NCBI GenBank assembly: GCA_026026165.1
Contig: JAPEUD010000031.1
Location: 186,001 to 239,303 of the forward strand
Source: Sarea resinae
Lineage: Eukaryota
DNA length: 53,303 bases
Direction: 5' to 3'
Shown here: one piece after another, positions 25,127 to 34,893 of the stretch
How the letters are laid out: each line of letters opens with the position of its first letter
Numbering within the stretch: the stretch's first letter is position 1
Notes under the pieces: model-generated
The model's database searches: none
What the model was told of the DNA's origin: nothing
Seen by the model: the letters and a program-made list of their open reading frames with translations, nothing else
Translations under genes and position numbers: made by a program

Positions 25127-26237
25127 CTATTGACCGTTCATATGCGCTCCCTTCGCAGCTATACGCTTGAAGCAAGCCTCATAGGCTGCATGCACGTCTG
25201 GCACCTCGTACCCGTACCCCTTGAGCTTCTCGACCAGCTTCGAAGAGTCAAGCGTGCAGTTACTGCGTCCAGCCTTGAGGATCTTACCTTGCTCTTCGAG
25301 CGAGAAATTCTTCCACGTGTAATCCGGAAACAGGTATTGCTTGTACATGGAGAGAACCTCGTTGTGGCTGATGGCGCCCGGGTTCGTGAAGTTGTAGACG
25401 CCGACCTCATTGTGTTCGGCCAGAATGATGGAGGCAGGCAGGAGGTCGTAGAAGATGGTTTGGGAATTGGGGACGTCGACAACGCGTTCGTATTTTGCGA
25501 TTTTGGTGACGAAGGAGCGGGCATGAAGATCGTCGGAGACCGGCATTCTTACGCGGAAGATGATGGAGTTGGGGTAGTTGACCAGAATCTGAGGCTTGCC
25601 ATTAGCGTAAAGCCGATATGGGGAGAGAGAGAAGGTAGCGAGGAAGACGTGGACGGCAAGTGCTAGGTAAACCAACCTTCTCGGTCAATGCTTTGGTCTT
25701 GGAATAGAATGAACCGTCAAAGTTGGGTTCGTCCGTCTCGACGAAGCCCTTACCGCCGATGGGGTGCTCCTCGTCGTAAGCGTAGACGCCTGATACGGTC
25801 AGTCACTCGTCCAAGACGGGAACTGGAGGATACTCGCATCCGGTGGCATATGTGGTGAGATGAACTCCCTTCAGGAAGCAGCAGTCGGCGAGGTTGACGG
25901 TCCCGATGACATTGCTCCGGATCGTCTCCTCCTTGTTGTCCTCGCACCAATCGACGTTCGGCCGTCCCGTCAGGCCAGCACAGTTGAAGACATGCGTCGG
26001 CTTGATGCTCTCGAGTTCCTGGAGGACTCCTGCTCGATCCTCCATGCGCACCGTGGTGGTCTGGACGTTCTTTCCTTGGCTCGTGAGTATCTCTTTCAAG
26101 TAGCTCGCCAGATATCCACGACCGCCCCAGATGAGGAAAACATTGTGGCTCGATGCACCGTTGCCGTTTCCATTGGTATGAGAAGCGCCGTTGGTGTTGC
26201 CATTGGCGTTGCCATTGGTGTTTCCGTTGGTCGCCAT
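25127..26237 (-). CDS. UDP-4-keto-6-deoxyglucose 3,5-epimerase/4-reductase (NRS/ER; UDP-L-rhamnose synthesis), 3 exons
   Basis: FLIWGGRGYL, VFNCAGLTGRPNVDWCEDNKEETIRSNVIG, YATGC|VYAYD, PNFDGSFYSKTK, RVRMPVSDDL..RSFVTKI, YNFTNPGAISHNE and RSNCTLDSSKL match plant and fungal NRS/ER proteins. Confidence 0.93.
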
Positions 26238-26658
26238 GATGGTGCTTTGGTGATGTATGTCTTACTATCTCGAAGGACTGATTTGGGTCTTGATGGTGGT
26301 GGTGAGAGCGGTGATGATCGAAAATGCCACCAACGTATCGAGGGGTAGGCAATCTCTTAACAGTGCCTGCGACCAAGTGAGGGGATATGCATCGAATGGA
26401 TGGGCGTAGACTGGTGACTGGACTTGTTTGACGAGGGCGCTCCCTTGCATATGCTGCTGCTGCCGCGGCCGCGTCGCGCAGACACGACATGATGGCCCCC
26501 CGAGGTGTGTTTCACTCCTTGCAGCTCCGCCGTCGCCTTCGCCATCGCCAGATGCAGAATAGCTCTTGAGTCGGCAATATCAACCTTCCCATCTTTCCCA
26601 TGTGCCCCCAAAGCCGACGTCGAGATGTTGCATCGGGGACCTGCTTGTCGTGTCGACC

Positions 26659-31888: not shown

Positions 31889-33120
31889 AGAAGGAGAAGG
31901 GCAAGAGTTGGGAGAGTTGTGGTAGTGGCGGCGGGAAGCCCAGACTCCGTTCACACGCAAATCGCGCAGTCTTAGTCCTCGTACTCCGTACAGTCTCCCT
32001 CAATAGAAGCATCACGCGCAACGCCATCGTCTGTCTGTCTCCGTAGCACCTTATGTTGGCCCACTCCCCCTTTCGAAGCTTTGACTCATCACATTTGCTG
32101 TGGGTTTTGCCTCCTGACGTTGAAGGCTGACGTACGAAGGAGAAACAAACCTTAAACGTCGATCTGGTGTAACCACCCCTGCCTTCCCCCCGCCTCTCGC
32201 TCCCGCCGCCGCGCCGTTGTCTTGCCCAAGGTAGGCTCGCCTTCGCCTCGCCTCGCCCGGGCCCGCGGCCCTGACAACCACCTGACGGAATGTAAGCATC
32301 TTTAGCGAGGGGTAAGTACGAAGTGAGCGACCTTGCATCGTGGCGAGGACAGACACGCCAGGGGCAGGTCTCCTGCATTTTGGTACTCCTTACGCCCGTG
32401 CCGCTTACTCTCCCCGCCCCCCTGAGGTGATGACCCTAGACAGAAATCATAGTAACTTACACCAGACAAGGAGCTTGTCTACCTGGCAGGGCATGCTGTG
32501 CGATCAAAGAAGGAATCGTTTGCTGGTTGTGCGATGCAGGGCTGGGAGGGAAGCGAAGGGCGTCAGGGAGGGATGTGTGTCTTCGTACTGAGGAGAGAGA
32601 GGGCCCCAGCTTTGGCTTTGGCTTTGGTGTCACTGGTATTACTGGCGTCCACGGGCAAGTGGCCGACCATCTGGATCTTCCGATGGAATCTCTGGAGAAA
32701 GGGAAGCGAAGAATACCCGTGCACGACATGGATGGCGAGAAAACATATTGCAGATCACGGTTCCTTGTGGTTTTGGACATGCCTGATACTTGCAATCTCA
32801 ACTTCCTCGTCATCAGTATTTTGAATCATCGATTATCTTGCGTGGCCGTTATCTGCCTATCTGTCTCTCTCATGAACTGCTGAATTGTTTATTCCTTTGA
32901 CTTTGGTTGGCTTCTGACTTCTTGCTTCCTTATCTTTCGCCCGCTGGCCCGTTGAGGTGTCATTCTTAATTCATCGTTAGTTTTGATTTACGTGTCATAG
33001 AGGATAGATTGAACTGGGTTGGAACCGGCCTGGCCTGATTAGATTGATATCGAACGAGGGGATTGGGACCGCGTCGCGTGCATGTGAACTGCGGTGAAGG
33101 AAACATCGACCAGAGAAAAG

Positions 33121-34893
33121 ATGCTAAAGGCAGTGAGCGGCAAGTGGTCGCTGTTATATATCTTTCTACTGCTGATGCTGCTGTTCGTGTATGTCCGATC
33201 TCTTCCATGTCTCCCATCCTCTCGCCGTCGACTGATCCCCCCCCCCTCTCTCCTCATCTCCCTGTACCGCCTCTCAGAAAAACAACGCTGACACCGGATA
33301 CCACCACGCCCCAGATGGACGATCCGCTACCCGACCACGTACGCAACCCATGCCTACACCCGAGTCTCGCAGCAGCTGCCGTCGCTCGTCATCGACCTCC
33401 ACCCAACCCGGACCTTCCAAGCGCGCTACAACAGCTCGAAAGTCGCCCTGTTCGTCGAGCCGCGCCCCCTCGGCCACATCACACCGCTGCTATTGCACAT
33501 GATGTCCGTGGTGCCGCCCGACTGGCGTTTCCTCTTCCTCGGATCCCCGGCCAGCATCGCGTCCGTGAACGCCAGCACCGCCGTCCGGCTGTCCGTCGCA
33601 TCGGGCAAGCTCGCGCTCGGCGCCATCGAGGAGACGGGCCGCAAGAAGAAACCGGGCATCGACGGCGCCTGGGAGTGGGAGAACATCGCCGATCAAGAAA
33701 GGCTCAACCGCATGCTGACGAATCGGACTTTCTACGAATCCAGGCTGCCGGGCGTCGAGTGGCTGTTTCTGTTTCATGCCGATAGCATCCTTTGTGCGAG
33801 CTCGAATACCAGTTTGAATGATTGGCTGGAGTTTGATTGGGTGGGGGCGCCTACGTGAGTTCTTTTGTTCTTTCCCGTTCCTTTATTCCCCTTTCCCCGT
33901 CTCCCTCCTCCCTCCATCTGTCTTGTCCATTCATTATATTTTGACCCCATCTCCAACCTTGTCGTCTGTCCAAGATGGGGATATAAGTGTGCATGCCTGT
34001 AGAGGGGGGGGGAAAAGGCCGAGCCCCTATAATACGCTCACGAGAGAAAGAGACAAATAAGATCAAGGCGTCCAAGAGACTGACATGCCGTCCGCAGCCA
34101 CCCCACCGACACTTTCGGTCACAACGGCGGCCTCTCGCTCCGCCGCCTCTCCGCCATCCAGAAAGTCCTCGCCTTCCAGGAACGCCACCCGCTAGACATG
34201 TCCGAGGACGAATGGCTCGTGAACCGGCTCGCGCTCCTGCCCGGTTCCAAAATCGCCAACGCCGCAGACATCACGGGCGGCGCGGCTGCTGCAGCGGGCT
34301 CGGCGGGCTCGGCGGTGGCGGCGGCGGCGGCGGCGGCGGCGGCACCCTCGCCGTCGTGGAGAGGCGGCTTTAGTGTCGGCGGCGGCGTCTGGCATGAGCG
34401 GCCCATGGGCTACCATTTCGCCGACGGCAGCGTCGGCCCTGGTTTGTCGCCCGAGGTCTGGGATGATCCTCGCCGGAGGAGGGAGGTGCTCGCGTACTGC
34501 CCCGAGGTCAAGATGTTGTTGGATATGAAACTTGAGCGGGAGAGATGCCCGCCGGGCAATGTGGGTGGGGGGCAAGTGGAAGCAGAAGTGGGGAGGGAGA
34601 GCGGGGAGGGAGGACAAGAGGGGGAACCCGCGGGAGGACAGGAGGTGGGACGGGAGGGAGAGCAGGGTGAGGTCAAGGTCGAGGGTGAGGTGGTTTGGGT
34701 GACCGGCGATCCAGCTCAGGATCAGGGTGAAGCCCAGGGTCAAGCCCAGGATCAGAATCACGAGCACAATCAGCCCGAAACTGCTCAACTTCTAGCAGCA
34801 GACGCCCTCGACCCGGCCCAAGCGGAGCCTGAGCCCTATATTCCTGATCGAGACACAGAGACAGAACAGTTCGACAGAGTTGTAGTAGATTAG
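33121..34893 (+). CDS. DUF5672 protein 2, type II membrane, putative glycosyltransferase with a poly-Ala insert and a Gly/Glu/Gln-rich tail (3 exons)
   Basis: Exon 1 MLKAVSGKWSLLYIFLLLMLLFV| is a signal anchor. Downstream motifs are SKVALFVEPR, VVPPDWRFLFLGS, FHADSILCA, FDWVGAPT|..GHNGGLSLRR, SEDEW, PMGYH and YCPEVK. It is a clear paralogue of 26659-27740. Confidence 0.8.

Follow-up and report, generated by a model that had tools for sequence, protein, structure and literature searches.

A conserved gene cluster in Sarea resinae as a candidate module for UDP-rhamnose synthesis, import and transfer by DUF5672 proteins

Background and summary

This text describes a group of five genes in the fungus Sarea resinae. 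It lies on a 53,303-nucleotide stretch of contig JAPEUD010000031.1 (positions 186,001 to 239,303 of the forward strand), here called the window. At window positions 25127-34893 there is a gene for NRS/ER, the UDP-4-keto-6-deoxyglucose 3,5-epimerase/4-reductase, on the minus strand. It is followed by a first DUF5672 gene (+), a nucleotide-sugar transporter gene (-), a UDP-glucose 4,6-dehydratase gene (+) and a second DUF5672 gene (+). On balance, the five probably belong to a conserved module of filamentous ascomycetes in which UDP-rhamnose is synthesized, imported and used as the donor for transfer by DUF5672 paralogues with a GT-A glycosyltransferase (GT) fold. This would make DUF5672 a probable new rhamnosyltransferase family. 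Donor, transport substrate and acceptor are deduced here from fold, topology and gene linkage.

The proposed route has three steps. The dehydratase and NRS/ER, both cytosolic, would make UDP-L-rhamnose from UDP-glucose. The SLC35E3-like transporter would bring this UDP-rhamnose into the lumen of the Golgi or the endoplasmic reticulum. There, two type II DUF5672 proteins, called a and b, would use UDP-rhamnose to add rhamnose at two different acceptor positions. The acceptors may be wall glycans or glycoproteins, for example rhamnomannan-type chains.

To our knowledge, rhamnose is absent from mammals. It is found on the walls of human and plant fungal pathogens, where it shapes immune recognition and virulence (PMC13429783, PMC8258688; here and below, papers are cited for the parts of their text that were available). 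The cluster offers testable candidates for the missing Golgi rhamnosylation steps, and a first candidate for a fungal UDP-rhamnose transporter. It also provides a first functional hypothesis for DUF5672, a family of fungi, Euglena, giant viruses, phages and bacteria.

The five genes

Pfam was run on 11 exon translations of the cluster, of which nine gave matches. The genes have short GT..AG introns. The cluster ends with the NRS/ER stop codon at 25127 on one side and the DUF5672-2 stop codon at 34893 on the other, so the coordinates in an earlier first-pass annotation of this DNA were exact. That annotation also claimed five consecutive genes on the strands given above, with nothing unrelated between them. 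The Pfam results for the exons and for the open reading frames (ORFs) in the gaps agree with this. Nine further ORFs, eight in intergenic gaps and one upstream at 24523-24786, match no Pfam family at E<=0.01, so, to the extent that Pfam can tell, no unrelated gene lies between the five.

The NRS/ER gene (25127..26237, -) consists of three coding blocks, at about 25803-26237, within 25602-25802, and at 25127-25684. The exon translation at 25803-26261 (-) matches the Pfam families Epimerase (2.8e-11) and RmlD_sub_bind (1.8e-10). The C-terminal exon has no Pfam match. Its sole PDB matches at E<=1e-5 are 4qqr, a plant-type '3,5-epimerase/4-reductase' (9.1e-44), and 7jid, a 'UDP-L-Rhamnose Synthase' (1.1e-29). 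The translation contains the motifs WGGRGYLAS, the glycine-rich motif of SDR enzymes, and YSKTK, which fits YxxxK. Asn and Gly abound at its N-terminus, and it has no membrane segment. Homology to solved enzymes and the SDR motifs identify the predicted product as an NRS/ER.

The UDP-glucose 4,6-dehydratase gene (30452..31888, +) has exons at about 30452-30526, 30586-30741, 30777-31310 and 31364-31888. The exon translation at 30678-31352 (+) matches GDP_Man_Dehyd (1.1e-44) and Epimerase (1.3e-37). It also matches TIGR01181 (2.9e-55), with a score under the full-length cut-off because the query is a single-exon fragment, and PDB entry 6vlo (3.1e-50). The corresponding public protein, P0359, shows the motifs GGAGFIAS (glycine-rich), STDEVYG (the T-D-E triad) and YAASK (YxxxK). 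Here too there is no membrane segment. These matches classify the predicted enzyme as a UDP-glucose 4,6-dehydratase, and the eukaryotic context suggests that it prefers UDP over dTDP. The first-pass annotation took the dehydratase and NRS/ER for a pair that makes UDP-L-rhamnose. Pfam, PDB and motif matches uphold both enzyme identities, and the strong homology indicates that the two would indeed carry out this conversion in the cytosol.

Between NRS/ER and the first DUF5672 gene lies a shared intergenic region (26238..26658). The two genes stand head-to-head, and the region is a putative bidirectional promoter.

The first DUF5672 gene, paralogue a (26659..27740, +), encodes 314 amino acids. 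Mapping with tblastn places its exons at about 26659-26721, about 26807-27202, and 27253-27740. Its protein is P0001, a public hypothetical protein attributed to Sarea resinae, which agrees with the window exon at 100% identity and bears PF18922. It would consist of a type II anchor and a domain with the GT-A fold. The exon translation at 27243-27740 (+) matches PF18922 with 76.1 bits (3.3e-21), where the gathering cut-off is 24.4. The second gene, paralogue b (33121..34893, +), has exons at 33121-33188 (start and membrane anchor), 33316-33854 and 34095-34893, and carries Ala/Gly-rich and acidic low-complexity inserts. Its translation at 33292-33858 (+) reaches 41.3 bits (1.6e-10) against the same cut-off. 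By these scores, both predicted proteins are members of PF18922.

In the public annotation, P0359 (863 amino acids) merges the dehydratase with DUF5672-2 through a 1.4-kb intron, and bypasses the start and anchor exon 33121-33188. Three observations suggest that this model is probably an artefact. The dehydratase reading frame closes at a stop codon at 31886-31888. For DUF5672-2 there is a separate ATG at 33121, with an anchor (WSLLYIFLLLMLLFV), a GTATGT donor at 33189, a CTGAC branch site and a CAG acceptor at 33315. And in Pycnora the orthologue, P0231, stands alone as an anchored protein of 374 amino acids. A fusion of a cytosolic enzyme, an anchor and a luminal domain as in P0359 is topologically possible. 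Given the start, anchor and splice signals of DUF5672-2, the original five-gene reading is the better one.

Both DUF5672 proteins had been placed in the lumen from the outset, and what can be read from them fits this. The first residues of P0001, MARIPLRLR, form a short basic tail, and a hydrophobic anchor comes next; DUF5672-2 has its own anchor exon. Within the domain of DUF5672-1, the sequons N49, N117 and N230 and the cysteines C156, C277 and C296 are invariant or nearly so. Such N-terminal anchors, N-glycosylation sequons and cysteines are consistent with predicted type II membrane proteins whose domains face the lumen. A transporter is then needed, because the donor would be made in the cytosol, by enzymes that have no membrane segment.

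The candidate for this is the gene at 28529..29756 (-). Its coding blocks, mapped by tblastn, are at about 29502-29756, 28774-29415 and 28529-28723, with an uncertain C-terminal end. The exons match TPT (0.0027, 17.6 bits) and EamA (0.0058, 17.3 bits), both under the Pfam cut-offs; the first exon has no Pfam match, and a comparison with solved structures gave none at E<=1. Orthologues with 55-70% identity bear PF03151/PF00892, and a re-scan agrees for P0184, P0188, P0189 and P0192. Through these orthologues the predicted protein can be assigned to the TPT/EamA families of the DMT superfamily. In all, 81 homologues of 386-2000 amino acids were found, the best with 60-70% identity, and their source names are SLC35E3 or 'GDP-mannose transporter'. 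One public gene model, P0141 of Seiridium cupressi, joins a transporter of the cluster type to a Glyco_tranf_2_4/GT92-like domain.

Linkage in other fungi

Linkage was judged by three indirect routes: metagenome contigs, public gene models, and locus tags or shared contigs. For the first, JGI metagenome contigs were pattern-scanned with a DUF5672 alignment. This gave 79 loci, or 56 groups at 95% identity, 52 of which are fungal-type. Partner genes in these loci were counted by tblastn with exon peptides of the window.

Among the 52 fungal-type groups, the transporter is present in 13, the dehydratase in 8 and NRS/ER in 5. Any of the three is found in 15 groups and all three in 4, while 18 have at least two DUF5672 genes. 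For the 21 fungal groups of at least 10 kb, the corresponding numbers are 8, 7 and 4; here 8 groups hold some partner, 4 hold all three, and 14 have two or more DUF5672 genes. By chance, about 0.01 matches would be expected per single-copy gene in the roughly 450 kb of flanking DNA, for an assumed genome of about 37 Mb. Nine control fragments, from the ceramidase gene, the RTA1-like gene and seven other places in the genes of the window, had 0 matches in the 79 loci.

Orientations recur as well. NRS/ER (-) stands head-to-head with paralogue a (+) in all five groups that hold NRS/ER (L016, L048/L052, L051, L060 and L066). Paralogue a is convergent with the transporter in 8 of 13 groups, and the dehydratase is followed by paralogue b in 4 of 8. 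Full five-gene sets are found in L016, L060-63 and L066, and also over about 17 kb of one contig (L052/L055).

It could be supposed that all this is chance or hitch-hiking without a functional tie. Most fungal genes do sit outside functional clusters, and many DUF5672 loci come without partner genes. Yet 13, 8 and 5 groups were observed where about 0.01 was expected, none of the nine control fragments matched, gene pairs and their orientations recur, and adjacency is seen in viruses too. This explanation is already disfavoured, and hardly any weight is left to it. The cluster is real and is conserved, far beyond chance, in part of the Pezizomycotina.

The public gene models tell of adjacency in another way. 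Out of the 81 transporter homologues, 8 also bear RmlD_sub_bind, and a re-scan agreed for all five that were re-scanned. These models come in two domain orders, and the five are from Fusarium species, Thelonectria and Aulographum. In the Aulographum model, the NRS/ER half is 50% identical to the NRS/ER of the window. Either as true fusions or as merged models, they place the two genes side by side on one strand.

The third route adds a few close pairs. In Pycnora, paralogues a and b have locus tags 001568 and 001571. The Claussenomyces tags are 000145 for a DUF5672 gene and 000146 for the transporter. Several Sordariales have DUF5672 and transporter genes on one contig. Taken together, the synteny data link DUF5672 and transporter orthologues to UDP-rhamnose genes in several other fungi, and the original idea survives this check.

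A transporter that carries another nucleotide sugar would be a different matter. The gene order would then reflect a general co-regulation of wall genes, and not rhamnose-specific import. The source names are generic, there is no solved-structure match at E<=1, the Pfam scores are below their cut-offs, and the substrates of nucleotide-sugar transporters are not readable from sequence. Set against this, the transporter is the most frequent neighbour of DUF5672 genes (13 of 52 groups), 8 public gene models join it to NRS/ER, and cytosolic UDP-rhamnose has to reach luminal DUF5672 domains. Another substrate is therefore improbable, and import of UDP-rhamnose is the reading that is kept here.

Clustering of ORFs across the loci brought up no further glycosyltransferase family among the recurrent neighbours. 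Only two other neighbours recur. An LMBR1-like gene is shared by 3 groups. A 639-amino-acid ORF that matches no Pfam family (L001, 5616-7532, -, and its counterparts) lies downstream of paralogue a in 6 fungal groups that have no transporter at that position.

A profile search found 3369 representative clusters of the DUF5672 family at E<=0.001. By source name, the matches include proteins of Sporothrix epigloea, Taphrina deformans and Euglena gracilis. In a quick maximum-likelihood tree, paralogues a and b are sister clades with SH-aLRT values of 97 and 98, and DUF5672-2 groups with Pycnora P0231 in the b clade. Each clade spans several classes, so the duplication is old. Clade a has orthologues in Pyricularia, Botrytis, Verticillium and Sporothrix (Sporothrix epigloea).

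Fold and candidate active site

An AlphaFold model of P0001 was made from 42 homologues. Its predicted local distance difference test score (pLDDT) is 80.2 and its predicted template modelling score (pTM) is 0.71. Foldseek found 317 PDB matches at E<=0.001, and all of the matches listed are glycosyltransferases or GT domains, with the Listeria rhamnosyltransferase RmlT at rank 12.

A second structural aligner, independent of Foldseek and run against all representatives, returned 84 chains at Z>=8. The best are GlyE (Z 11.2, root-mean-square deviation 4.0, 205 residues aligned), LgtC (11.1) and LARGE1 (11.0), followed by B3GalT6 (10.5) and PBCV-1 A64R (10.4). Glycogenin is also among the top chains (Z 11.2-10.3). 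The GT-A match covers residues 46 to 289 or thereabouts of the model, and no one CAZy family leads. Among viral models, those of giant-virus proteins named 'DUF5672 domain-containing' match best, with E values as low as 2.8e-14. That DUF5672 proteins would have a GT fold was a point on which the first-pass annotation could have failed. Two aligners now place the predicted structure of DUF5672-1 among the GT-A enzymes.

Fungal, giant-virus and distant eukaryotic members share a set of invariant residues: E58, R60, W80, Q150, D152, G173, N185-G187, R191, E212, D213, H251, C277 and E279. After the strand at 145-149, at what is probably the place of the DxD in GT-A enzymes, the sequence reads Q-T-D-S, with one invariant Asp, D152. 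The likely catalytic set, in P0001 numbering, would be Asp152, Glu212-Asp213, His251 and Arg60/Arg191.

The GT-A-like fold also allows for a non-Leloir reaction. This could be transfer of a sugar-1-phosphate in the style of Stealth or GlcNAc-1-phosphotransferase, or another nucleotide-sugar-dependent modification. CpsY (Z 9.1), GlcNAc-1-phosphotransferase (Z 9.0) and nucleotidyltransferases (Z 8.7-9.5) all match the P0001 model, and the classical DxD is missing. However, the best matches (Z 10-11.2) and all Foldseek PDB matches listed are glycosyltransferases. The genes next to viral and bacterial DUF5672 genes are glycosyltransferases and methyltransferases as well. A non-Leloir reaction accordingly looks quite unlikely. 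For rhamnosyl transfer by DUF5672, an inverting mechanism is to be expected, since the donor would be UDP-beta-L-rhamnose and fungal rhamnosides are alpha-linked.

Some DUF5672 proteins are far longer than P0001. In 16 long ones, no second Pfam domain was found at E<=1e-4. Four that look eukaryotic (P0271, P0288, P0268 and P0349; 547-767 amino acids) have about 10 predicted helices and, just before the DUF5672 domain, an additional one. BLASTP relates them to the cluster-type transporter with E 0.002, and language-model features put residues 1-400 among the DMT/nucleotide-sugar transporter clusters (0.97). Their N-terminal part has no Pfam match at E<=10, and hhalign gave E 0.088 with a probability <1%. 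An AlphaFold model of such a protein has a pLDDT of 40.2. That a transporter domain may be fused to DUF5672 in one polypeptide is a lead only.

Giant viruses and bacteria

The giant-virus set has 80 loci with a DUF5672 gene, which form 55 groups at 90% identity. Two groups, L108 and L138, hold homologues of both synthesis genes. On L108 (5738-8498), a 627-amino-acid ORF consists of NRS/ER (40% identity to the window, 3.4e-33) fused to the dehydratase (46%, 6.1e-44). A 264-amino-acid DUF5672 ORF lies 83 bp downstream, on the same strand. The domain order of the 627-amino-acid ORF is the reverse of that in plant RHM enzymes.

On L138 (6471-15116), a 909-amino-acid ORF combines NRS/ER, dehydratase and 2OG-Fe(II) oxygenase. 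It is 3.7 kb from a 737-amino-acid DUF5672 ORF, and beside a GT4 gene. The two viral cases offer weak support, from an independent lineage, for a pairing of DUF5672 with rhamnose synthesis.

Other viral and bacterial surroundings concern glycans more generally. On one giant-virus contig, the DUF5672 gene adjoins GT32-like and GT2-like genes. Bacterial genome contigs were scanned with a smaller DUF5672 alignment, which gave four loci. Two of them are inside operons with GT2, GT4, GT10, GT41 and methyltransferase genes, and a third is beside a lipid A acyltransferase gene. A scan of viral contigs with a single DUF5672 protein gave no match.

One candidate was dropped. Rank 10 of a BFVD search, a 627-amino-acid 'NAD dependent epimerase/dehydratase', could be taken for a DUF5672 fusion. 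It probably reflects Rossmann-fold likeness, because the comparable 627-amino-acid ORF on L108 is NRS/ER plus dehydratase and has no DUF5672 domain.

Comparison with known systems

A two-enzyme pathway to UDP-L-rhamnose, with a UDP-glucose 4,6-dehydratase and a 3,5-epimerase/4-reductase, is known from Magnaporthe and Botrytis (PMC5698552). The Sarea cluster has the same two enzyme types. What it adds is their clustering with a transporter gene and with two genes for proteins of transferase fold. The available text of PMC5698552 does not mention a gene cluster for this pathway ('cluster' has 0 occurrences), and pathway papers in subscription journals may mention neighbours. Rhamnose or UDP-rhamnose synthesis has been tied to genera that have clade a orthologues (PMC5698552, PMC5872309, PMC4226871).

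The available text of PMC5872309 states that by 2017 no rhamnosyltransferase had been characterised, and that of PMC4226871 that no obvious rhamnosyltransferase orthologue was found in Sporothrix genomes. Literature searches for fungal rhamnosyltransferases and UDP-rhamnose transporters now turn up only the Sporothrix work on Rht1 and Rht2, and no description of a fungal UDP-rhamnose transporter. Full-text searches for 'DUF5672' and 'PF18922' found no paper on the function of DUF5672.

Rht1 (Glyco_tran_28_C) and Rht2 (UDPGT) are GT-B proteins of clan CL0113, with recombinant UDP-rhamnose-dependent activity (PMC9145935). When they are silenced, glycans and a glycolipid are affected in distinct ways (PMC13429783), and the same line of work includes a survey of 351 species (PMC12295706). 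The activity proposed for DUF5672 is the same, UDP-rhamnose-dependent transfer to wall glycoconjugates, and a clade a orthologue is present in Sporothrix epigloea. In contrast to the GT-B enzymes, DUF5672 proteins have a predicted GT-A fold, are type II anchored and are clustered with the donor pathway. Pfam found neither UDPGT nor Glyco_tran_28_C in the exons, and with its predicted GT-A fold DUF5672 is not of the Rht1/Rht2 type. The words 'Golgi' and 'transmembrane' are absent from the available text of the three Rht1/Rht2 papers (PMC9145935, PMC13429783, PMC12295706).

On the transport side, URGT1-6 of Arabidopsis are Golgi UDP-rhamnose/UDP-galactose transporters (PMC7752924). They and the Sarea protein are nucleotide-sugar transporters with the same proposed import role. 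By its source names, the Sarea protein is SLC35E3-like.

The RmlT structure (8bz5 and related) and the GT domain of chlorovirus PBCV-1 A64R (2p6w) have the GT-A fold in common with P0001, with a Foldseek E of 2.7e-5 and Z 9.4 for the former and Z 10.4 for the latter. This implies no specific kinship, because the scores are no better than those for GT8, GT2, GT6 and GT31, at 9-12% identity.

Galactofuranose offers a parallel in logic. In Aspergillus, the gene for UDP-galactopyranose mutase lies beside that for the UDP-galactofuranose (UDP-Galf) transporter. As proposed for Sarea, a rare UDP-sugar is made in the cytosol, moved by a dedicated Golgi transporter and used by type II GT-A transferases, the GfsA proteins. 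AfGfsA (8yrl) matches the P0001 model with Z 9.6. The sugar and the transferase family are different, and in Sarea the candidate transferases are inside the cluster.

Weighing the evidence

The main rival accepts most of this, including a role in the Golgi and in the same pathway, but assigns the DUF5672 proteins another sugar, such as mannose, glucuronic acid or galactose. They would then build the acceptor or extend rhamnose chains, and leave rhamnosyl transfer to enzymes like the GT-B proteins Rht1 and Rht2. The GT-A fold does not fix the donor, and in bacteria DUF5672 occurs in other glycan gene contexts. Silencing of Rht2 in Sporothrix leads to less rhamnose on N- and O-glycans (PMC13429783). 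On the other side, no genes with a transferase fold other than DUF5672 recur in the conserved loci, and each paralogue is directly paired with one of the UDP-rhamnose synthesis genes. On the giant-virus contig L108, the synthase and DUF5672 genes are 83 bp apart. A dedicated transporter in the cluster also calls for a luminal transferase. This rival has to be taken seriously, but it is unlikely.

There are several points that count against rhamnosyl transfer by DUF5672 more directly. In Sporothrix, rhamnosyl transfer is credited to Rht1 and Rht2 (PMC9145935, PMC13429783). Some of the protein evidence also speaks against it. A classical DxD is not seen, only one invariant Asp in its probable place; Q150 is a His in paralogue b, and the Pycnora b copy has no E-D pair. 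Z values of about 9 are also reached by sugar-phosphate transferases and by nucleotidyltransferases that share the fold. The Seiridium model P0141 hints that the transporter may have an alternative transferase partner.

Linkage, too, is incomplete. The first-pass annotation spoke of a 'self-contained' and 'complete' module. The five genes are all there, but this wording is too strong: in 13 of the 21 fungal groups that reach 10 kb or more, DUF5672 genes, often as an a/b pair, are found without any of the three partners in the DNA covered. In Podospora australis and Niveomyces, DUF5672 and transporter genes are on separate contigs. All but 2 of the 55 giant-virus groups have no rhamnose link, and neither do any of the four bacterial loci (0/4). 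This means that the DUF5672 family as a whole is not rhamnose-specific.

A broader version of the proposal is put forward as somewhat more likely to fail than to hold. It says that DUF5672 is an unrecognised GT-A family, of which the ascomycete clades a and b are Golgi enzymes that build the alpha-L-rhamnose linkages of rhamnomannans and related wall glycans. The first fungal UDP-rhamnose transporter would supply them with donor. The pairing with the synthase would be old enough to include some giant viruses, and some eukaryotes may fuse a transporter-like 10-helix domain to DUF5672.

Neighbouring genes

The cluster is flanked by an alkaline ceramidase gene (23412-24339, +) and an RTA1-like lipid-translocator gene (35671-36729, -). 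A link to glycolipids through these two was considered and dropped, as neither gene is present in any of the 79 related loci.

Further away, at 12777-18008, a LamB/YcsF gene sits beside a large gene that encodes biotin carboxylase, carboxyltransferase A/B and C/D, and biotinyl domains. The large gene is urea amidolyase- or 5-oxoprolinase-like, and is unrelated to the rhamnose cluster. At 2067-8106 (-) there is a large gene for an Arf guanine nucleotide exchange factor (Arf-GEF) of the Sec7/BIG type, with DCB, HUS, Sec7, HDS and BIG2_C domains. This is a Golgi trafficking factor, and no evidence ties it to the cluster. The end of the window, 50001-53303, has a G+C content of 0.28-0.40, compared to about 0.5 elsewhere, and may be degenerate repeat DNA.

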